A DNA stretch of 64,000 bases, taken from Defluviitaleaceae bacterium. GTDB taxonomy: Bacteria > Bacillota > Clostridia > Lachnospirales > WRAX01. Location of the stretch: positions 21,748-85,747 of the forward strand of contig WRAX01000006.1 of the NCBI GenBank assembly GCA_009779935.1. The letters are read 5' to 3'. A model generated the notes under the pieces. It did no database searches. It saw nothing but the letters and a program-made list of their open reading frames with translations, and had not been told where the DNA came from. This document shows, in pieces, positions 6,322-61,824 of this stretch. The translations under genes and the position numbers were made by a program. Positions within the stretch are counted from its first letter, which is position 1, and the number at the start of each line of letters is the position of its first letter.

Positions 6322-7350
6322 GTGCTTATAAACAACAACGAGTATTTTGAGATTTTAGAAAGTGTTAAAACGCATATAAACTGTGCCCAACACAAGGCTG
6401 TGATGGGGCTTAATCGTGAGCAGATAATCCTTTATTGGAACATTGGCAGGGTTATTTTGGATAATGCCAAATGGGGTAATAAGTTTGTGGACAACCTTGC
6501 AAAAGACATTAAACTGGAGTTTCCAAACGCAAAGGGTTATTCGGTGCGGAACTTGAAGTATATGCGCAAATTTGCTGAATTTGTGGATGATTTAGAAATT
6601 GTGCAGACACTGTCGGCACAATTGACATGGTCGCATAATAGGCTATTGCTCGACAAAACAAAATCGCTTGGTGAATATTTATGGTATGCGGATAGAACCG
6701 TGCAAGATGGGTTGTCGTTGTCTGGCTTGGAAAACCGCATTGAGCTAAAGAACTACGAGCGACAGGCAACATCAGAAAAAGTTGAAAATTATGGGCGATT
6801 ACTACCAGCACCACAAAACAGCTTAGTGACCGAAACGTTGAAAAGTCCTTATCTTTTCGACTTTATAGAGAAACATGACGATATTATCGAGCGCGAAATA
6901 GAACATGAACTTGTTGCAAATATTGTAAAAACACTCTTGGAACTTGGTACAGGGTTTGCGTTTATTGACAAACAATACACGCTGACCGTGGCGGATGTAG
7001 ATTATCATTGCGATTTGCTTTTTTACAATACACGGTTGCGTTGTTATGTCGTGATTGAGTTAAAGGCGGGCAAGTTTAAGCCCGAATACGCAGGTAAGTT
7101 GAATTTTTATTTATCTGCCGTAGACGATATGTTAAAGCATGAGCATGACAATCCAACTATCGGAATTATTCTATGCAAACATCGTGACAAGCTAACTGCC
7201 GAATACGCACTCAAAGACATTCATAAACCGATAGGCGTTAGCGAATATAAGTTATCTGATTTTGTGCCGGAGGAGCTGGCTGATACCCTGCCATCTGCGG
7301 AGGATATAGAGAAGCGGATAAAGCAGAAATACAAAATCATGGAAGATTAG
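6322..7350 (+). CDS. PDDEXK nuclease-domain protein (DUF1016/YhcG-like) embedded in the type I R-M operon
   Basis: GTG start 7 nt after AGGAGG. Shows the N-terminal pattern ILYWNIGRVI...GYSVRNLKYMRKFAEF and the C-terminal DLLFYNTRLRCYVVIELKAGKFKPEYAGKLNFY (D...ELK nuclease core). Confidence 0.7.
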   Translation: MLINNNEYFEILESVKTHINCAQHKAVMGLNREQIILYWNIGRVILDNAKWGNKFVDNLAKDIKLEFPNAKGYSVRNLKYMRKFAEFVDDLEIVQTLSAQLTWSHNRLLLDKTKSLGEYLWYADRTVQDGLSLSGLENRIELKNYERQATSEKVENYGRLLPAPQNSLVTETLKSPYLFDFIEKHDDIIEREIEHELVANIVKTLLELGTGFAFIDKQYTLTVADVDYHCDLLFYNTRLRCYVVIELKAGKFKPEYAGKLNFYLSAVDDMLKHEHDNPTIGIILCKHRDKLTAEYALKDIHKPIGVSEYKLSDFVPEELADTLPSAEDIEKRIKQKYKIMED

Positions 7351-51991: not shown

Positions 51992-53446
51992 TCATTGCCT
52001 TTCTCTAATTGTAATATTACCCCAAAGGTTTAACTGCGCTTCGTAATATGGGTTGGTAACTTCCAAAGTCCATGTAGGTGCCGTTACAGTTAGGCCGTCC
52101 TCGCTTATATAGAGATTATCATAGCACTTCACAGAAAGGCCGGCATTTGGGTAAAATTCGGGACTAATAAAGCCGTTGTTTGTATACAGCCGCCAGTTGG
52201 GGCTGGCACTGACAAATTGACCATAAAACACCAAGAATCTCCCAAGGGGGCCGCCAGCCACCCAAAAGCTTTCGACATGAATTGTATCCTCTATAAAATT
52301 ATCCCCGGTAATGGTCATTCTATCTCCCCGCACAAAAACCTCTGCGGCTTGCTGCATTATTATAAATTCTTCCACCCACGCCCGCTGGCCGGGCGCTATT
52401 TCCCAATAGCCCCAAAGCTCCAAATCCAGCTGGTCAAAAGGTGTTGTTTCTATGCCCAAAGCCTCTTTAAGCAACCCTCCCAAGTCGGTTGCAAAGGTTA
52501 AGTTTTGCCACCATTCCGTGCCGGTATCCCGTAGTAACAGGGCATACATGGCCCCCGTAAAATAAGGAAAGATAGTGTTTAGACCTGTGGTTTCCATTCT
52601 TTCAAGTATCATGGCTTCATATCTGGCAAGAAATTCATCTATATCTTCAAAAACCAAAAATTCCGTAAAAGACGCTAACCCTTCGTTAATCTCCTGGGCA
52701 TTTTCGTTGCGGGCGGCCTGGGGATGGGCGTTTCTGCGATGTTCCCTAATGGACAGGGCATCATGTATAGCCGCCATCCTCTCGCCCCCTTGCGTGCGCA
52801 AAGCTGTTGCCAAAGCCTTAATCTCCATTAACACGGCAATGCGGGCATCCGCCGAATGGTTCATAAAGTCCAAAGATTGGTCGATATTTGGCAACCAGCC
52901 CCCTCTGACAACCTGCGGGTTTTGTATGGCGTGAAAAGCCTCATGCAGCATTAGGATAAGGGCATCCCTATATCCGTCTGCCAAGATTTCATAAAAATCT
53001 GGTTGCCAACTTACCATACCCCATGTACGACCGGCAAAAACCTGGGCGGTGTGGCTGATGAAGACGTTGTCGGGCAAAATGCCCACATAAACATTGCCTT
53101 GCCGTTGAAAGCCTGCGGTGGCCGCCACAGGAGGCCGGTTGGTTACGGCGTGGCGGGTTAAGGGGTCGGCGATCATCAATGGGGCATCAAGCCTAAGGCC
53201 GAATAATTCCCCGTCATCCTCGTCCCAAATGGCTTGTACTTGGGCAAACAAACCGGCTGCCGCATCCAGGGGGATGGATGGCTCAAAATCAAGCACCGCA
53301 TCCTCTGGCTCGGATGTATAGCCCTCCGTAACTTCATCCGCCCCATAGTCATAATCATATTCTTCATAATAATCCACTTGCCCGCCCCAGGCCGCCATAA
53401 AAACCAAGGCAATACCCAATAAAAGCAAGCTTATAATTTTCTTCAT
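51992..53446 (-). CDS. secreted hypothetical protein with an HExxH motif (putative zinc metallopeptidase)
   Basis: Signal peptide MMKKIISLLLLGIALVFMAA. MLHEAFHAIQ with a downstream INEGLASFTEF. The start overlaps the dcd stop. Confidence 0.6.
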   Translation of the reverse strand: MKKIISLLLLGIALVFMAAWGGQVDYYEEYDYDYGADEVTEGYTSEPEDAVLDFEPSIPLDAAAGLFAQVQAIWDEDDGELFGLRLDAPLMIADPLTRHAVTNRPPVAATAGFQRQGNVYVGILPDNVFISHTAQVFAGRTWGMVSWQPDFYEILADGYRDALILMLHEAFHAIQNPQVVRGGWLPNIDQSLDFMNHSADARIAVLMEIKALATALRTQGGERMAAIHDALSIREHRRNAHPQAARNENAQEINEGLASFTEFLVFEDIDEFLARYEAMILERMETTGLNTIFPYFTGAMYALLLRDTGTEWWQNLTFATDLGGLLKEALGIETTPFDQLDLELWGYWEIAPGQRAWVEEFIIMQQAAEVFVRGDRMTITGDNFIEDTIHVESFWVAGGPLGRFLVFYGQFVSASPNWRLYTNNGFISPEFYPNAGLSVKCYDNLYISEDGLTVTAPTWTLEVTNPYYEAQLNLWGNITIRERQ

Positions 53447-53976
53447 CACTTCGCATCCTTATAAATTTGGCTGGCCTGCACCCCTGTGTTTTTTTGATAC
53501 TTGCCTTGATAGGGGATATAGTCCCCTTCGATTTTGTGGTAATAAATCTGGCAAATGCGCTCGTTTGGATAAATTTTAACGGGGTGCAGGGTGTGTATTT
53601 CCAGCGTCCAATACCCCGAAAAGCCCACATCGCCAAAGCCTGCTGTAACATGGATGCTTACCCCAAGGCGGCCGACGGACGAGCGGCCTTCCAGCATTGG
53701 CACATAACCATGGGTTTCGGTAAATTCCACGGTGCTACCTAAATAAAGCTTGCCGGGCTCCAGGATAAAGCCATCCTCCGGGATGACAATTTCTTCTGTG
53801 GGTGTTTCTGTATGCATATCCAAATACCCTACTTTGCTTAGGTCATACACTTGCAAAATATTGTTTAAGCGCAAATCATAGCTGTTTGGCCCTACCCTGC
53901 TGCCATCAAATGGCTTGATTATGATGTCCTTACCTTCCTCGGCAAGGCGTTTTATTTCCAATCCTGATAAAATCAT
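53446..53976 (-). CDS. dcd: dCTP deaminase
   Basis: MILSGLEIKRL...PNSYDLRL...EGRSSVGRLGV pattern. The ATG at 53976 follows GGGGGAAAA. The first 20 codons of the track ORF are unlikely to be translated. Confidence 0.9.
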   Translation of the reverse strand: MILSGLEIKRLAEEGKDIIIKPFDGSRVGPNSYDLRLNNILQVYDLSKVGYLDMHTETPTEEIVIPEDGFILEPGKLYLGSTVEFTETHGYVPMLEGRSSVGRLGVSIHVTAGFGDVGFSGYWTLEIHTLHPVKIYPNERICQIYYHKIEGDYIPYQGKYQKNTGVQASQIYKDAK

Positions 53977-53986
53977 GGTTTTCCCC

Positions 53987-54577
53987 CTAAAAATCAATAT
54001 CTTCAAAAATTTCCCGCACATCCACAACAAAATCATTAAACAGGGAAACTTTGAATGTATATATAATTGCGTCCAGCTCTTCTTGGGTGCGCTCTGCTAA
54101 CCAAGCTTCCTCATGGGAGGTGTAAATGCCTGCCAGGACATATTTTCCATCCACAAGGTGGAACACATCAACAGTGTAGTTGTGAACATCAACAATCCAA
54201 TATTCTTTTACCCCGCACCTTTCGTAAAGATTTTTCTTGTAGTTTTTGTCGTTGGAGGCAGTGGATGGCGACAGTACCTCCACAATAAGGTCGGGTGCGC
54301 CGTGGATGCCGTTTTTCTTGATAATATCCCTATTGCACACTATCATGGCATCCGGGATAACCGTGTCATCTTCTGTTAAGAAAACATCAACCCCATCCCC
54401 AAAAGGTGTGCACGGCTTGCCTTTTAAGTGCCGTTTGAATATGGATGCGATGCTCAAGCTAACCAAACCGTGATAAACACACGCACTGGGAGACATTAGG
54501 TGGATAACCCCATCTAATTTTTCCTTGCGACGGATTTCCTTAAAACCATTTGGAAATTGATGTGCTAAGTTTGACAT
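53987..54577 (-). CDS. Uma2-family (DUF820) endonuclease
   Basis: The PDAMIVC...APDLIVEVLSPST...D...K...Y...GVKEYWIVD core is typical Uma2. AAGGAGGA RBS 12 nt after the uvrA stop. Confidence 0.8.
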   Translation of the reverse strand: MSNLAHQFPNGFKEIRRKEKLDGVIHLMSPSACVYHGLVSLSIASIFKRHLKGKPCTPFGDGVDVFLTEDDTVIPDAMIVCNRDIIKKNGIHGAPDLIVEVLSPSTASNDKNYKKNLYERCGVKEYWIVDVHNYTVDVFHLVDGKYVLAGIYTSHEEAWLAERTQEELDAIIYTFKVSLFNDFVVDVREIFEDIDF

Positions 54578-54589
54578 TTCAAGTCCTCC

Positions 54590-57418
54590 TTACTTCAAAA
54601 CCTTTTTCAAATACTTGCCTGTATAAGACTTGCGGCTTTTCGCCACCTGCTCCGGTGTGCCTTGGGCGATTACCATGCCGCCGCCGCCGCCGCCCTCGGG
54701 GCCTAAGTCAATAATATGGTCGGCAGTTTTAATAACATCCAGGTTATGCTCTATAACAATAACAGAATTCCCTCCATCCGTCAAGGCATGCAGTATATCT
54801 ACCAACTTGTGTACATCAGCCATATGTAGGCCTGTTGTTGGCTCGTCCAGCACATAAATGGTGCGGCCTGTACTGCGGCGGGAAAGCTCTGTTGCCAGCT
54901 TTACCCTTTGGGCCTCTCCCCCCGAAAGGGTTGTGGAGGATTGGCCCAGCTTTACATAGGACAAGCCCACATCCACCAGCGTTTGGATTTTATCCCGCAG
55001 GCGTGGTAGGTTCTCAAAAAAGGCATGGGCTCGCTCTACGGTCATATCAAGCACATCGGCTATGGTTGCGCCTTTATATTTAACTTCCAGCGTCTCCCGG
55101 TTGTAGCGTTTGCCGCCGCAAACCTCGCAGGGCACAAAAATATCAGGCAAAAAGTGCATTTCTATTTTAATTATGCCGTCACCACTGCATGCTTCGCAAC
55201 GCCCACCCTTTACATTAAAAGAGAAGCGGCCTTTTTGGTACCCTCTCACCTTCGCCTCCGGTACTTGTGCAAAAATATCACGGATAAGGTCAAAAAGCCC
55301 TGTGTATGTGGCGGGGTTACTGCGTGGCGTACGCCCGATGGGGCTTTGGTCAATATTTATTACTTTATCAAGATGCTCTTGCCCTGTCAACTCCTCATGC
55401 TTGCCCGGTTTGCCTTTGGCACGGTTTAAGTCCCTTGCAAGGCGCTTGTACAGCACTTGGTTTATAAGTGAACTTTTACCCGAGCCACTAACCCCCGTAA
55501 TTGCCACAAAAAGCCCAAGGGGAATATCCACATCCAATTTCTTCAAATTGTTTTCGGTTGCCCCTGTTATGCACAGTTTTTTATCGGTGGGCTGGCGGCG
55601 TTGCTTTGGCACTTCAATAGCCAATCTGCCGCTCATATACGCCCCTGTAACACTATTTTCGTCCTTTAACATATCCGCAACCGTGCCGGAAAACACAATT
55701 TCGCCGCCGTGGCAGCCTGCGCCCGGGCCAATGTCCACAATATGGTCAGCTTCCCGCATGGTATCCTCGTCATGCTCCACCACAATAAGGGTATTTCCCA
55801 AGTCCCGCAGGTGTTTTAAGGTTTTTAGCAGTTTATCATTATCCCGCTGGTGCAGGCCGATAGATGGCTCGTCCAAAATATAAACAACGCCCACAAGCCC
55901 GGAGCCAATTTGGGTTGCAAGTCGTATGCGCTGGGCTTCGCCCCCGGAAAGCGTTGCCGCCGCCCGTGCCAGTGTCAAATAATCCAAGCCAACATCCACC
56001 AAAAAACCTGCACGGGCTTTGATTTCTTTGAGGATAAGCTCCACAATGGCAGCTTGATGGGGTGTTAGCGACAATTCACGGAAGAATTGAGCTAGCTCTC
56101 CCACAGGCATGGTGGTAATATCTGTAATATTAACCCCGCCGACGGTAACTGCCAAAATCTCCTCCCGCAGGCGTTTGCCACGGCATGCCGGGCATTCGAT
56201 ATTCGTGATAAAGGCTTCGTATTGCTGTTTGGCATATTCGCTGTGGGTATCTTTGTACCGCCGTGCCAAATTGTTCACAAGCCCTTCCCATTGGTGCATA
56301 AAAACACGGGGTTGGCCCCTTGTGTCAGTATATTCTACCGGAAATGTTTCATCCGTGCCGTACAAAATAACACTGCGTGCCTCGATGGGCAGGCTTTTGA
56401 ATGGCACAAGCAGGCTAAACCCAAAATGTTTGGAAAGGTGCAAAAAGGCATTACCACCCCATGTGCCGCTTTTGCTGGCCTGGTTGTAGCCCGGTGCCGT
56501 AATCGCCCCTGCCTGTATGGAAATATCAGGGTTTGGCACAATAAGCTCCGGGTCAAATTCCATCTTAAAGCCAAGGCCGGCGCATTCGCCACAAGCCCCT
56601 TGTGGGTTGTTAAACGAAAACATGCGTGGCTCTATGCTGGACAGGGATATGCCATGGTCGGGACAGGCAAAATTTTGGGAAAAGCTCAAATCCCCCTTGC
56701 CTTCCACATCCACAAGCATTGTACCGTCAGTCAATGCCATCACCGTCTCTACCGACTGGGACAAGCGGGCCTCAATCCCCTCTTTCACCGCAATTCTGTC
56801 CACCACAACCTCGATGTTGTGCCGCTTGTTTTTATCAAGTTTAATTTCATCGGCCAGCTCCATTACTTGACCATTTACACGCACACGGGCATAGCCATTG
56901 CGCTTTGCCTCCTCCAACACCTTTTGGTGCTCGCCTTTGCGGTCCCGCACCACAGGGGCAAGCAGCTGTATGCGGCTGCCTTCCTCCAAATCCAAAATCT
57001 TATCCACAATTTGGTCAATGGTTTGGCGCACAATCTCCTTGCCGCATTTTGGGCAATGGGGCGTGCCAACACGGGCATACAGCAAACGCAAATAATCATA
57101 AATCTCCGTCACCGTACCCACGGTAGAGCGGGGGTTTTGGTTCGTGCTCTTCTGGTCAATGGAAATGGCGGGGGAAAGCCCTTCAATACTGTCCACATCA
57201 GGCTTTTCCATTTGCCCCAGAAACTGGCGGGCATAACTGGACAAGCTCTCCATATACCTGCGCTGCCCCTCAGCATATAGGGTCTCAAAAGCCAAGCTGG
57301 ACTTGCCCGACCCCGAAACCCCTGTAAACACCACCATGGCATCCCTTGGTATCTCCAAATCCACATTTTTTAAGTTGTTTTCTCTTGCACCTTTAATTAT
57401 AATTTTGTTTTTTGACAT
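54590..57418 (-). CDS. uvrA: excinuclease ABC subunit A
   Basis: 942 aa with two ABC modules (GVSGSGKSS twice, LSGGEAQR twice) and zinc fingers. Confidence 0.97.
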
Positions 57419-57728
57419 TTTATCCTCGCTTTATAATTCCTTATGTTCTGTTTGTTGTGAGTATTGCGACCATATTACATCTCCCAATTATGGTCATAGC
57501 AAACAAGGCTTCGGAAGCAAAAACCACCGACGGCAGTTCGCATATATCAACACATTCTTCGCCCATGCGTTCAAAAAACAGGCTTTGCACTCCCACAATG
57601 CTGGTCATAACATGTCACCCCAAGTCATTTCTGCCCAAAATCAAATCTATCAGTCGGCTCTTCCTCCACTTTATCAAAGTACCTAATAACAGTATCATGC
57701 TTTTGCGTTTACCAAGCCCCACACCCCT

Positions 57729-58232
57729 TTAATATCCTATCAGCAAAATCCCCTTTAATGGCAATTGAATCCTACCCGACAAATAGAGGGTTTCCAAAAA
57801 CCTGTACACTTTTTCAAAATCACGTTTTCCAAGATACACATTTCGCACTGCCAAAACAAGATATTCCACACCATGCATCAAACAGGCTTGGAAGATATCT
57901 TTAAGAAAGGCATTGTTGTCCACCGCTCGCCCCGCCTCAACTTCGATAACTATCCTACCGTCCGCACTCCAAGCATCGGCGTTATACTCCATATCAATGC
58001 TATTGTTGCGACCGAACAGTACGGGCACTCTAATTTTCTGGTCAACACTTTTGCCTTTTTCAACACGAAACCCGAGGCCCTCAAAAGACGCTTCCAGAAC
58101 CTTCAAAACACCATCACTTTTTAGGTCGCTTTCCGGCGATTTTATAACATCCTTCACTTCTTCAAAGCATTTCACAATGGATACCAAATCATCAGGCATC
58201 CCTTGTGATCGTGGAAACAGCTGGTAATTCAT
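57729..58232 (-). CDS. hypothetical protein with a restriction-endonuclease-like core (BglII/BamHI-like D...ExE pattern)
   Basis: The NADAWSADGRIVIEVEAGRAVDNNAFLKDIF...VEYLVLAV pattern resembles DxD...VEVQF...NN... of BglII-type enzymes (from memory). AAGGGAG RBS. AT-rich. Confidence 0.6.
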   Translation of the reverse strand: MNYQLFPRSQGMPDDLVSIVKCFEEVKDVIKSPESDLKSDGVLKVLEASFEGLGFRVEKGKSVDQKIRVPVLFGRNNSIDMEYNADAWSADGRIVIEVEAGRAVDNNAFLKDIFQACLMHGVEYLVLAVRNVYLGKRDFEKVYRFLETLYLSGRIQLPLKGILLIGY

Positions 58233-58464
58233 GTCCGCACTCCCTTTTTAACATTAAAGTTCTATCTCGCCACTGCACTACCCGCCCAAAGCGCAAATCC
58301 ACAGCTCAACCTTGCTTCGTGTCTTTTTGCAAAGATTTGATGTGGCTGACAGTCGTCATTTTGCCAAACCACTTTCAACATCGTCAAAATTCAATTTATA
58401 CTTTATTCTATATGTGTTAATCATTAAATTTTCTGTAAGTACTACATTCGCCTTTATTTTCAGG

Positions 58465-58722
58465 TTACTTGGCTTGTTTATGGCTTCTCAACCTATTCTT
58501 GGCTGCACTTATTTGGTAAAACGAGACTTTGACAAGTCGTTGATTGCCTTTATTAAATAGCTCCACAAATTTAATGCCATCAAAATCACTAGGTACAAAG
58601 GGTATATCCAACCTGTCATTTCCGGCATAAATACGAATTTTGCCACATATTATCACAAGGTCATTTTTTACCTTTGTGTGGGCAACAGCCACAGCTCGAC
58701 GGACATCAATCTCTACCGTCAA
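58465..58722 (-). CDS. hypothetical 85-aa ORF (TTG start), possibly the out-of-frame body of a frameshifted gene
   Basis: A strong AAGGGGGA RBS and ATG at about 58751 open a 9-codon ORF (MTTVEVAVV*) in another frame, directly upstream. Confidence 0.3.
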   Translation of the reverse strand: MTVEIDVRRAVAVAHTKVKNDLVIICGKIRIYAGNDRLDIPFVPSDFDGIKFVELFNKGNQRLVKVSFYQISAAKNRLRSHKQAK

Positions 58723-58828
58723 ACTACTGCAACTTCAACTGTTGTCATCTCTATCCCCCTTACAACAATTTCTTGATCTCATTTTCCGCATACAAACTTA
58801 TTATTTCTGACTCGCAACCCCAAGCTCC

Positions 58829-59827
58829 CTAATATCCAATAGTTTTTACGTGAAATTGTGTAAGCGAAATGTCGCTTTTTCGCTCTGTGAAGTCGTTGCT
58901 CTCACCGTTAACTCGCAATTTATAAAGGTTTTCATTGGTGTTCAACCATTCGTCATTTGCGGGTATTATGCCACCATCAACATCAAAAACGTGTATCAAT
59001 TTATTTTTTTCATCGCTTAATAGTAACCAAAAACCTTCAGTTTCAAGTTGTTTTTTGCTTGGGTCGAAGTGATAATTACCGCTGTTTAGCTTGTTTGCGA
59101 ACCTAATTCCTTTGTCGTCAAACTTCATACCGCCTTCTATGCAAATTTGAATTGCGCGCGCCTTTTTCAGTCGGCTGTAATTATTTTGGATAACGCGGCT
59201 TGATATTACGACGGTTCGTGTTGTGACTTCTTTAGCCTGAGTGATTGAAGCTTTTAATGCTTCTTCAATTTCCAATGTATTAAATCTTTCTGAAAAATGT
59301 TTTTTAAGCAAGTCTTTTATCAAATCTGGTGTTGCTTCTTGTTTTATGGTTTCAACATCTTCTAAAAACTGCTTTTCGTGACTTATCCAGCTCGCAACGT
59401 TATAAGTATCAAAGTTGTACTTATTAAAACTTTGAATAAACCCAATCGCACTTCTATTTTCTGCGATAAAAGGTATTTCAAAGCTATAATCATTAGCACG
59501 AATATAAATTCTATCCCCAATCAAAACGCCAATTTTAAGACTCAGAAGTTTCATATAGTCGTTTAGTTGCTTTTTCTCCACTTCTCCAAAAATGTCCTTG
59601 TGGCGTTTTATTTCCACAACAAAATTATCTCCAACAACCATATCAACCCTAACATTCGTATGGGCAACGGAAACATTATATTGCCTTTTTATCTCGCCCA
59701 TTAAAATGCTGTACCCGAAAAGCTCTGCAAAAATCTTCTCCCATGTGGCTTCTATGACACTTTCCTGTTCATCCAGATTCTCTCTGTACTTACTCACTAT
59801 AATTTCCCATTTTACAGCTGGTGTCAT
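58829..59827 (-). CDS. hypothetical protein with an N-terminal PD-(D/E)xK-like (HsdR-N-like) nuclease motif
   Basis: WEKIFAELFGYS...VRVDMVVGDNFVVEIKRHKD fits the D...ExK pattern. The AGGAGGA RBS overlaps the uvrB stop. AT-rich. Confidence 0.65.
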   Translation of the reverse strand: MTPAVKWEIIVSKYRENLDEQESVIEATWEKIFAELFGYSILMGEIKRQYNVSVAHTNVRVDMVVGDNFVVEIKRHKDIFGEVEKKQLNDYMKLLSLKIGVLIGDRIYIRANDYSFEIPFIAENRSAIGFIQSFNKYNFDTYNVASWISHEKQFLEDVETIKQEATPDLIKDLLKKHFSERFNTLEIEEALKASITQAKEVTTRTVVISSRVIQNNYSRLKKARAIQICIEGGMKFDDKGIRFANKLNSGNYHFDPSKKQLETEGFWLLLSDEKNKLIHVFDVDGGIIPANDEWLNTNENLYKLRVNGESNDFTERKSDISLTQFHVKTIGY

Positions 59828-59838
59828 TTTCTATCCTC

Positions 59839-61824
59839 CTACAGCAGTTTTTTGACCTTAAAGATTTTGTCACGAAGCTGCGCCGCCCTCTCAAAATGCA
59901 AATCCATGGCGGCTTGTTTCATGTCTTTTTCCAGGGTTTTGATGTGTACTAACAACTCTTCCCGGTTCATAGATTCGGGGTCTTTGGCCAGCTTTGCGCC
60001 CTTTTGTTTTTTGCCGTCGTCAACGGTGGTGGTGGCTTGTATAATGTCATGCACTTTTTTGACTATTGTTTGGGGGGTTATGCCATGTTGCTCGTTATAG
60101 GCCATTTGGATGTTTCGGCGGCGCATGGTTTCGCTTATGGCATATTCCATGGAGCGTGTTATACGGTCAGCATACATTATTACACGCCCGTGGGAATTAC
60201 GGGCGGCACGGCCAATAGTTTGCACAAGGGGGGTTTCGGAGCGCAAAAAGCCTTCTTTATCCGCATCCAAAATGGCAACCAGGGCCACCTCGGGTATGTC
60301 CAGCCCTTCACGCAATAGGTTTATGCCCACAAGCACGTCAAAAACATCCATACGCAAATCCCTGATAATTTCTAACCTTTCAAGGGTTTTAATGTCGGAG
60401 TGGAGATAGCGCACGCTAATGCCGCTATTTTTCAAGTATTCGGTCAAATCCTCCGCCATGCGCTTGGTTAGGGTAGTTACAAGGGTTTTGAAGCCCGCAT
60501 CTTTGGTTTTGCGTATTTCGGTTATAAGGTCATCAATTTGCCCGTTTATGGGGCGCACGGATATTTCGGGGTCTACAAGCCCTGTGGGGCGGATAATTTG
60601 TTCTGCCAGTAGATTGCTGTTGTCACGCTCATAGGCGGCAGGGGTTGCGGATACAAATAGGGCACGCTGCATTTTCCTTTCAAATTCCTCAAAACGCAGG
60701 GGGCGGTTGTCCAGGGCAGATGGCAGGCGAAAGCCGTAGTTTACCAGTGTTTCCTTCCTTGCCCTATCGCCGTTGTACATGCCCCTAAATTGGGGCAGGG
60801 TTACATGGCTCTCATCCACAATAATCAGAAAGTCATCGGGGAAATAGTCCAGCAGGGTGTGGGGGGTGTCGCCGGGCTTACCGCCGGCCAAATGGCGGGA
60901 ATAGTTCTCAATTCCATTGCAAAAGCCCATTTCCCACATCATTTCAATGTCATATCTTGTGCGCTGTGCAATTCGCTGGGCTTCTATCAGCTTTTCTTCC
61001 TTTTTTAGTAAAGTTATCTGCTCTGCCAGCTCTTCTTCAATATCAACAATTGCCCGTTCCAAATTTTCCTTAGTGGTAACATAGTGGGAGCCGGGGAAGA
61101 TTGAAATATGGGTACGCACACCCAGCACATCCCCCGTAAATGCGTCAATTTCGGAGATTTTTTCAATCTCATCCCCAAAAAATTCCACACGGTAAGCGAT
61201 GCTGTCGCTGGTTGTGGGGAAAATCTCCACCACATCCCCGCGCACCCTAAATGTGCCCCGTTGGAAATTCATATCATTTCGATTATACTGTATGGCAACA
61301 AGTTTGCGCAACATATCATCCCTGTCCCAAATTTTGCCCGGACGCAGGGAAACCACAAGGTTTTTATAATCCACAGGGCTGCCAAGGCCATAAATACAGG
61401 ATACAGAAGCAATTATCACCACATCCCGCCGCTCGGCGATGGCTGCGGTGGCAGAGTGGCGCAGCTTGTCAATTTCATCATTTATAGCAGAATCTTTTTC
61501 GATATATGTGTCGCTGGAAGGCACATAAGCCTCCGGCTGATAATAATCATAATAACTTACAAAATATTCCACGGAATTGTTGGGAAAAAACTCCTTAAAC
61601 TCATTATAAAGCTGGGCGGCAAGGGTTTTGTTATGTGCCATAACAATGGTTGGCATTTGCAGCCGCTGTATAATATTTGCCATGGTAAACGTTTTGCCGC
61701 TGCCCGTTACACCAAGCAAGGTGCCAAAGCGGTTGCCACCCTCAAATGCAGTGGCCAAGGCATCTATGGCCTGTGGCTGGTCACCTGTCGGCTTAAAATT
61801 GGACACTATTTCGAATCTCTCCAC
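59839..61824 (-). CDS. uvrB: excinuclease ABC subunit B
   Basis: [10 protein letters not shown], the DESH box (IVDESHVT), a helicase C domain and a C-terminal UVR domain ([15 protein letters not shown]). Confidence 0.97.

Follow-up and report, generated by a model that had tools for sequence, protein, structure and literature searches.

What are two nuclease-like genes doing between uvrB and uvrA, and do they work together? This question is raised by a 64,000-nucleotide (nt) stretch of contig WRAX01000006.1 from a Defluviitaleaceae bacterium (hereafter the window, meaning the whole stretch that was analyzed), in which the two excision repair genes lie 2,420 bp apart. The intervening DNA (the island, positions 57419-59838) encodes proteins of 332 and 167 amino acids (aa), both with nuclease folds. 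An earlier note on this DNA, made from its letters, had suggested that the pair might form a methylase-less nuclease system for defense or DNA damage that was inserted into the uvr operon and co-transcribed with it. We favor, with a probability of roughly 0.58, the explanation that the uvrB-uvrA junction is a strain-variable slot exchanged via flanking homology, and that it holds independently acquired solitary restriction-type nucleases rather than a cooperating two-gene system.

The uvrB-uvrA junction and its contents

Among 80 metagenomic loci collected around UvrB relatives, 19 have uvrA after uvrB on the same strand. The gap between the two genes was −6 to 167 nt in 17 of these 19, mostly 15-50 nt in other Clostridia, and the remaining two loci carried 2.6-3.6 kb of unrelated genes in this position. 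This comparison supports the view that the window's 2.4 kb represents an insertion into a normally tight junction, as the earlier note had proposed. The AT-richness that it had pointed out is likewise real: the GC content of the island is 0.390, vs. 0.504 in uvrA, 0.478 in uvrB, and 0.443 across the whole window. Still, at the 8th percentile among equal-sized windows and ~1.6 standard deviations under the mean, the island is not an extreme outlier.

Within the Defluviitaleaceae, we found four different fillings of this junction. One set of relatives (L001-L003 and L013) has a single 168-aa gene, its product 83% identical to the window's 167-aa protein, 35 nt after uvrB and 18 nt before uvrA. 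Another set (L004-L006) has a 325-aa gene, a C5 methylase gene, and an HNH gene, without the 167-aa gene. In L014, a 167-aa gene (73% identical) precedes a 342-aa gene, the reverse of the order in the window, where the 332-aa gene comes first and is followed by a decayed 342-like gene, a decayed uvrB 3′ end, and the 167-aa gene. At this one site, then, a 167-type gene is present in L001, L014, and the window and absent from L004, and yet another member of the Defluviitaleaceae carries the gene (68% identical) elsewhere, with an mrp antiporter gene on one side and a MatE gene on the other.

The genes on either side have changed far less. The window's uvrB product is 93% identical to UvrB of L001 and L004, relatives that carry Pfam UvrB domains, and its uvrA product matches UvrA of L001, L004, and L014 by phmmer; the UvrB C-terminal fragment of L014 is 75% identical to that of the window. 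By contrast, the 332-aa protein shares 45% identity with the L004-type 325-aa protein and 38% with the 342-aa protein of L014. Because UvrB is ~93% identical among the window, L001, and L004 while the cargo differs, turnover of the cargo has been much faster than that of its flanks.

The island itself retains traces of former contents. Downstream of the 332-aa gene lie the remains of a second gene of the same family, to which the 342-aa protein of L014 aligns by tblastn in two pieces: residues 40-143 at 58728-58543 (E 5e-9) and residues 291-327 at 58463-58353, in another frame (E 7e-8). The 85-aa open reading frame (ORF) in this region, which the earlier note had called possibly frameshifted, matches the L014 protein by phmmer (E 8e-12) and is, judged by these alignments, no component of a system but a fragment of the decayed paralog of the 332-aa gene. 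Next to the remnant is a direct repeat that the earlier note did not notice. Here, ~115 nt (58233-58350) repeat the 3′ end of uvrB (59839-59950) with 71% identity over 101 nt, and the local alignment score of 82 compares with 17.3 ± 2.9 (maximum 29) in 500 shuffles. In an alignment of this decayed copy with four uvrB 3′ ends (from the window, L001, L004, and L014), its frame-0 translation (VSHIKSLQKDTKQG and, after a stop, AVDLRFGRVVQWRDR) was still recognizable as a UvrB C-terminus. The copy abuts the start of the 167-aa gene, whose ribosome-binding site (RBS) is formed from the former last uvrB codons, and therefore the 167-aa gene would once have directly followed uvrB.

On the other side of the 167-aa gene, the 310-nt spacer before uvrA is not present in L001, and in L013 the sequence downstream of the gene does not align to the window until ~300 nt past the 167-aa stop. 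This spacer showed no similarity to any fetched locus, no Rfam match, and no excess of RNA structure (z = +1.45), and its 55-aa ORF matched no family in Pfam, NCBIfam, PADLOC, or PHROGs. It is probably debris. Three further candidates were rejected. The similar sequences that the earlier note saw bracketing the island both exist, but each is an RBS with its start codon, and they do not mark a duplicated target. The uvrA-side sequence, GAGGATAAAATGTCA, is the native uvrA RBS and start whatever the cargo, being conserved in three relatives with different cargo (four genomes), and on this ground we rejected a target-site duplication. A tblastn search of the island for traces of the C5 methylase or HNH gene found in L004 gave nothing significant (best E 0.12-0.59), and a group I or II intron or other RNA around the 167-aa gene gave no Rfam match in the island at E ≤ 1.

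These observations suggest the following history. The 167-aa gene would first have followed uvrB immediately, an arrangement that L001 and L014 have kept. Later, a block with the 332-aa gene and a 342-like paralog would have entered, either by recombination through uvrB homology with a diverged allele or by an insertion that duplicated ~115 nt of the uvrB 3′ end, and the paralog and the duplicated uvrB end would have decayed afterwards. With just 71% identity between the two copies of the repeat, the event may be old, or it may have been an allelic recombination with a diverged donor.

In the present arrangement, the AGGAGGA RBS of the 332-aa gene overlaps the TAG stop of uvrB, just as the earlier note described. 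No terminator-like site was found on the coding (minus) strand of the island, so read-through with the uvr genes is plausible: transcription of uvrB would pass through both island genes into uvrA, making co-transcription of the whole set plausible as well. No tRNA genes lie near the island. The statement that it contains no methyltransferase, transposase, or integrase also stood, as none was found among its ORFs in Pfam, NCBIfam, and PADLOC scans. A six-frame translation of the whole window gave no hidden Markov model (HMM) match to a C5 methylase, and a lineage-specific methylase HMM had no match in the island. Each feature that the earlier note had read from the sequence was present at the coordinates it gave, and the positions of all features are collected in Table 1.

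Table 1. Genes and remnants in and around the uvrB-uvrA slot of the window
Feature	Position	Strand	Description
uvrB	59839-61824	minus	661 aa; upstream boundary of the slot; ORF call
332-aa modular nuclease gene	58829-59827	minus	predicted PD-(D/E)xK head and variable C-terminus
Pseudogene remnant of a second 332-family gene	58353-58728	minus	closest to the L014 342-aa gene; contains the 85-aa ORF (58465-58722)
Decayed copy of the uvrB 3′ end (UVR-domain coding region)	58233-58350	minus	abuts the start codon of the 167-aa gene
167-aa solitary nuclease gene	57729-58232	minus	predicted OkrAI/BamHI-like PD-(D/E)xK fold
310-nt spacer with 55-aa ORF (57441-57608)	57419-57728	minus	no family assigned
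uvrA	54590-57418	minus	942 aa; downstream boundary of the slot; native RBS GAGGATAAAATG
Uma2-family gene	53987-54577	minus	Pfam
dcd	53446-54036	minus	Pfam

Two neighborhoods beyond the slot deserve mention. Directly 3′ of uvrA, and overlapping the start of dcd, is a Uma2/DUF820 "putative restriction endonuclease" gene (Pfam E 2e-30), the third gene with a PD-(D/E)xK fold in the same operon. It is present in L001 and not in L004, and therefore seems to be variable cargo, too. In a relative whose UvrB is 72% identical (L101, 9135-12039), the place of uvrA after uvrB is taken by genes for a 287-aa unknown protein and a protein with HEPN/RES-NTD1 and RES domains, which is another defense-like cargo beside uvrB.

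The two island proteins

AlphaFold2 (AF2) modeled the 167-aa protein as a single compact domain (pLDDT 91.6). When this model was compared with the PDB by Foldseek, the top match was OkrAI (3odh), a BamHI isoschizomer, with a probability of 1.00, a TMq of 0.57, and a modest E value of 2.7e-3, followed by several BamHI chains. Across 42 aligned sequences of the family, D86, E97, E99, and K111 are invariant, as are 51 columns in all. The catalytic residues of BamHI are D94, E111, and E113. The model appears to contain the PD-(D/E)xK alpha/beta core of the BamHI/OkrAI class, in agreement with the BglII/BamHI-like core claimed in the earlier note, and its fold and context suggest that the protein is an active, Mg-dependent PD-(D/E)xK endonuclease of this structural class. 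Peptide motifs that had been singled out, NVRVDMVVGDNFVVEIKR and DAWSADGRIVIEVEAGRAVDNN, were both found in the island proteins.

The 167-aa protein matched nothing in our local Pfam, NCBIfam, and PADLOC libraries. Some of its homologs carry a weak precomputed label, PF26497 "Halo_RE," and literature searches on this label, on Vsr-like analogs, and on uvrB/uvrA insertion hotspots found nothing relevant. The family is nonetheless common. Its homologs form 2,592 clusters at 90% identity, the matches listed sharing 60-84% identity, and at 50% identity the profile matches 1,107 representative clusters, nearly all of them stand-alone proteins of ~165-180 aa. Hits occur in 394 among ~185,000 species genomes, with 60-70% identity across phyla and a patchy distribution over Poribacteria, Bacteroidota, Acidobacteriota, Verrucomicrobiota, Gammaproteobacteria, and Firmicutes. 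Between the window and L001, dN is 0.09 and dS is saturated, giving a dN/dS of ~0.03, which indicates strong purifying selection. We rejected a phage or plasmid origin: the 167-aa protein has one Bacillus plasmid match (51% identity) and no phage match, the 332-aa protein has no match in the phage or plasmid collections, and a PHROGs search gave nothing meaningful.

The 332-aa protein matches Pfam PF13366 (PDDEXK_3) at residues 48-103 (E 5.9e-7; 30.3 bits, above the cut-off of 22), with a further weak match to HSDR_N_2 (E 0.016) and a match to NCBIfam TIGR04256 ("GxxExxY") that, at 30.5 bits, falls under the cut-off of 35. An NCBI entry from Defluviitaleaceae that is 100% identical to it is named "GxxExxY protein." However, the protein does not have the single-domain architecture of that model, being nearly three times its length (116-117 positions). 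A single-sequence search returned three relatives and a profile search 37, of 184-408 aa (mostly 310-380), and some of these carry PF13588. In their alignment, the N-terminal ~190 residues are conserved and D62, E72, K74, and Q87 are invariant, which bears out the D...ExK motif reported earlier for this gene; beyond the conserved part, the C-termini comprise several unrelated domains.

The AF2 model (pLDDT 88.3) and the alignment together divide the protein into a PD-(D/E)xK head (residues ~1-120), a helical region (125-200), a disordered linker (201-216), and an alpha/beta C-terminal domain (217-332). Fold matches covered the head only and included Cas4 (SSO0001 and Pcal_0546), the DrdV nuclease domain, DUF820, and phage HSDR_N proteins. 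PDB entry 2ost (I-Ssp6803I) appeared weakly among the matches, and that of PvuRts1I was negligible (rank 35, TM 0.10). A profile of the C-terminal domain found no sequence match in Pfam or the PDB, including none to a modified-base-binding domain (SRA, EVE, or YTH). From this architecture we infer a modular, stand-alone nuclease whose cutting head, of the HSDR_N/PDDEXK_3 type, is constant and whose C-terminal domain is exchangeable, the latter probably setting target choice in the family. Six loci of the 332-family fetched from elsewhere (three distinct contexts) show the gene as solitary, in unrelated neighborhoods without methylases or a 167-type neighbor.

Cytosine methylases around the 167-family

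In 29 of 80 genome loci sampled for context, the 167-family gene directly adjoins a gene for a C5 methylase, which may be whole or a fragment and is on the same strand in 28 of them. Because the family travels with the C5 methylases of restriction-modification operons, the window's 167-aa protein would most likely be an orphan type II restriction enzyme, with any protection that it needs coming from a methylase elsewhere in the genome. Some of the arrangements are intact. An intact methylase gene is followed by the 167-family gene at a spacing of −14 to +5 nt between heuristically called ORFs in three loci (L068, L074, and L091), and the order is R.NgoPII, 167-family gene, intact methylase in two more (L052 and L083). 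R.NgoPII lies directly upstream of the 167-family gene in eight loci and R.HaeIII downstream in one; in at least 10 loci, the gene is embedded in a GGCC restriction-modification operon.

Many of the neighboring methylases are truncated. A three-gene unit of R.NgoPII, the 167-homolog, and a 5′-truncated C5 methylase recurs in L007/L015 (Glaesserella), L016, L045, L063, and L182, and is found in several phyla, with Oscillospiraceae and Selenomonadaceae as well as Glaesserella among its hosts. The truncated methylases of these units (91-158 aa) keep only the target-recognition region and motifs IX-X, and they are nested truncations of one lineage, the one found with R.NgoPII in L052 and L083, with low dN/dS (e.g., 0.11/2.4). 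In other loci, the methylase gene is interrupted. L090 (5329-7324) has a cassette of a small ORF and the nuclease gene inside a C5 methylase gene of which both halves are kept: the N-terminal part (motifs I-VI) stops at HMM position 155, and the match resumes at 157, ~900 nt on, in a downstream half that is also frameshifted. Two methylase halves flank the nuclease cassette in L082, and L088 has an in-frame fusion of methylase motif I with the small upstream ORF, with an N-truncated R.HaeIII and vsr following.

The small ORF of these cassettes is acidic, encodes 76-95 aa, and occurs in ~15 loci (L090 5762-6001, L082 5762-6001, L053 5771-6001, and ~12 others). Its motif is ...S.EA..IDE.IFYFV..., and in most loci it shares 4 nt with the start of the nuclease gene. 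It matches nothing in Pfam or PHROGs, and its product may act as an inhibitor or controller. The window and L001 are without it.

GGCC is depleted around the 167-family gene (median observed/expected ratio [O/E] 0.33 vs. 0.82 in uvrB control loci, p 4e-10), a comparison confounded by phylogeny, as GGCC and especially GATC are depleted in Defluviitaleaceae with or without the gene. The avoidance is weaker in loci with the acidic small ORF (median O/E 0.70 vs. 0.25, p 9e-5). In the window, GATC occurs 17 times vs. 183 expected (O/E 0.09), and O/E is 0.45 for GGCC (129 sites), 0.15 for CGCG, and 0.14 for CTAG; in the relatives, GATC is found at 0 of 39 expected sites in L001, 0 of 37 in L004, and 0 of 10 in L014. 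Because L004, without the gene, also avoids GATC, this avoidance is not tied to the 167-aa gene. We therefore rejected palindrome avoidance as a guide to the specificity of the 167-aa protein, as L004 has the same GATC/GGCC depletion.

Other neighbors of the 167-family vary. True vsr genes lie within 1-3 kb of the gene in at least seven loci. In Acidobacteriota (L085, L077, and L066, ~6571-7086), a 171-aa homolog of the IS200-like Y1 transposase lies between the nuclease cassette and a true vsr in L085, and the same transposase-like gene follows the cassette in L077 and L066, where no vsr was detected. Rfam searches of six related cassette-bearing loci gave only one tRNA and one Flavo-1 RNA; the latter motif (RF01705, 60.7 bits) is in L082 (6499-6590), directly 3′ of the nuclease gene and before the methylase fragment. 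In Croceitalea (L055, 4930-10263), the order is DUF4130, small ORF, nuclease, a 174-aa ORF on the opposite strand, and uvrA, and L090 has a uvrA fragment 5 kb upstream of the cassette; the nearness of L055 and L090 to DNA-repair-type genes could be chance. In three Bacteroidota loci (L064 6515-8809, L092 6499-7407, and L079 5097-6158), the gene directly after the nuclease gene is another defense gene (prokaryotic Argonaute [Piwi], HamA, or Schlafen/AlbA_2), and these are defense-island settings.

Competing explanations and known systems

Several observations weigh against our preferred explanation, that of solitary restriction-type nucleases in a variable slot. No methylase adjoins the gene in the window or in 51 of the 80 167-family loci, and an orphan type II enzyme, if active, ought to kill its host in the absence of protection in trans, the possible sources of which are covered only in part by a window of 64 kb. 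In several loci, the 167-homolog adjoins another complete restriction enzyme (NgoPII or HNH_2), and the truncated or interrupted methylases (L090, L082, L088, and the NgoPII units) fit a plain cognate restriction-methylase pair poorly. Retention in the uvr slot as far as L014 could reflect a selected link to excision repair. To these points we add the modest Foldseek E value, a residue equivalence to OkrAI/BamHI that is taken from the sequence pattern, the phylogenetic confounding of the GGCC comparison, and the fact that co-transcription is something we infer.

How do the alternatives fare? That the two proteins form one methylase-less two-component nuclease system, for defense or damage response and co-transcribed with excision repair, has only the slimmest of chances. 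Both genes do share the slot in the window and in L014, both encode nuclease folds, and no terminator separates them on the coding strand. Yet each occurs alone in close relatives (L001 and L004), their order is reversed in L014, and ~600 nt of pseudogene debris, including the uvrB remnant, lies between them in the window, so a single two-gene system is not supported. Moreover, just one of the 80 other 167-family loci has a 332-type neighbor, namely L014, in the same slot and the same bacterial family; the six 332-family loci elsewhere have no 167-type neighbor; the 332- and 325-aa proteins are 45% identical while the flanking UvrB proteins are 93% identical; and no PADLOC model matches. The co-occurrence data thus largely refute the system proposed by the earlier note. 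What remains of it is that both proteins are nuclease-fold and that no methylase accompanies them, and with no significant PADLOC match for either protein, a known defense system did not emerge. It is also improbable that the 167-aa protein is a DNA-repair endonuclease, whether a non-homologous analog of Vsr, nicking DNA at T:G mismatches from 5-methylcytosine deamination, or an accessory to UvrABC. Its gene takes the position normal for vsr in some loci, directly after a C5 methylase (L068, L072, L074, and L091) or between restriction enzyme and methylase (L052 and L083). Three Defluviitaleaceae lineages have retained it at the uvrB-uvrA junction, with strong purifying selection acting on it, it stands near uvrA in L055, and its 51 invariant columns across phyla are as expected of an enzyme with a generic substrate. 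From gene position, a DNA-damage-linked function may exist. However, the protein shows no Vsr similarity (no PF03852 match in Pfam at E ≤ 1; hhalign probability 0.04% against the true Vsr of L076), a second Vsr would be redundant in the loci with a true vsr, and a Vsr analog would be without substrate where the methylase is truncated, as in many loci, or missing, as in 51 of 80. The close relative L004 manages without the gene, and another relative has it away from uvr.

The state of the methylases invites two other explanations. If the 167-aa protein were a modification-dependent (type IV-like) nuclease attacking 5-methylcytosine DNA, it would be incompatible with a cognate methylase, and the neighboring methylase genes would often be truncated or interrupted because of that incompatibility. 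Truncated or interrupted C5 methylase genes do flank an always-intact nuclease gene in ~20 loci, and in most loci, the window among them, the gene stands alone and has no methylase beside it. We nevertheless consider this very unlikely, given the intact methylases directly adjacent in L052, L068, L074, L083, and L091, a single compact domain without a recognizable SRA, EVE, or YTH reader, and nearest fold neighbors that are orthodox type IIP enzymes. The other explanation, doubtful but deserving of more weight, is that the 167-aa gene is a selfish free-standing nuclease cassette, resembling a homing endonuclease gene, that invades tight operon junctions and preferentially one C5 methylase lineage of GGCC-type operons; its place in the uvr slot would then be due to invasion and persistence, not to defense. 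In its broader form, to which we give a similarly low chance, the 167-family would be a mobile "methylase-hunting" cassette, with a BamHI fold and in ~15 loci the acidic mini-protein, that enters or replaces C5 methylase genes and tight junctions such as uvrB/uvrA, either as a homing-like selfish element or as a player in conflicts between restriction systems. Such behavior would accommodate the nuclease inside methylase genes (L090, L082, and L088), the one methylase lineage with nested 5′ truncations downstream of the nuclease in several phyla, the patchy distribution at 60-70% identity across phyla, and the two different intergenic sites in Defluviitaleaceae. It sits less well with junction positions that vary within methylase genes, often with deletions, unlike site-specific homing. 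The family is absent from phage records and present in one plasmid record only, no intron or intein signature was seen (and no intron by Rfam), inheritance in the uvr slot is seemingly stable (dN/dS 0.03), and the tight, intact methylase-then-nuclease pairs resemble ordinary restriction-modification operons.

If solitary nucleases in a variable slot are indeed what the window holds, then uvrB-uvrA, among the most conserved of bacterial operon junctions, can serve as a landing pad that swaps restriction-type nuclease genes between close relatives. The scar at this locus would be useful for understanding how defense or selfish genes spread by recombination through core-gene homology, and uvrA expression in the window may depend on read-through of foreign genes. 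The 167-family is of interest in its own right, being common, without a match in our local libraries, and in a striking relationship with cytosine-methylase genes. If that relationship turned out to stem from targeted invasion or from conflict between systems, such behavior would be new for restriction-fold nucleases.

Compared with known systems, the 167-aa protein resembles OkrAI and BamHI (PDB 3odh, 1bhm, and 2bam) in fold, as a small single-domain PD-(D/E)xK protein with a D...E-x-E triad rather than E-x-K. It differs in having no detectable sequence similarity to them, in its length (167 vs. 194-213 aa), and in the absence of an adjacent cognate methylase in the window. Furthermore, BamHI and OkrAI are paired with N4-cytosine methylases, whereas the partners of the 167-family are C5 methylases. 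Members of the family are embedded in GGCC operons, which combine R.NgoPII or R.HaeIII with C5 methylases and sometimes Vsr, and GGCC is depleted around the gene; however, neither Pfam RE_NgoPII nor RE_HaeIII is related to the 167-aa protein, whose gene is an extra one there, often beside a truncated methylase, and has none of the other operon members near it in the window. The 332-aa protein shares its PF13366 match and D62, E72, and K74 with the PDDEXK_3/"GxxExxY" proteins (PF13366 and TIGR04256) and the HsdR N-terminal nuclease domain (PF13588), and differs in scoring under the TIGR04256 cut-off and in having an additional helical region and, at the C-terminus, a domain of 115 aa that is swapped within the family.

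Free-standing homing endonuclease genes, such as the T4 seg and mob genes, lie between conserved genes, and I-Ssp6803I is a homing enzyme with the PD-(D/E)xK fold. Like them, the 167-family genes are lone nuclease genes between or inside conserved co-transcribed genes, variable among relatives and patchy across taxa. Unlike them, their junctions vary and they are chromosomal rather than phage-borne. A parallel to the slot as a whole comes from comparisons of Helicobacter and Pyrococcus genomes by the Kobayashi laboratory, in which restriction-modification genes reportedly insert into operon-like clusters with a long target duplication. The window is similar in that a restriction-type block interrupts a tight operon and one inserted block is flanked by a direct repeat, ~115 nt long, that copies the target (the uvrB 3′ end). 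It is different in that the repeat copies are only 71% identical and the inserted block has no methylase. Horizontally acquired restriction-type genes in a variable slot, inserted in an operon with a long direct repeat, are of an already known kind. What this locus adds is the location inside uvrBA, a readable scar of its assembly, and a large BamHI-fold family that sits in, or replaces parts of, cytosine-methylase genes.

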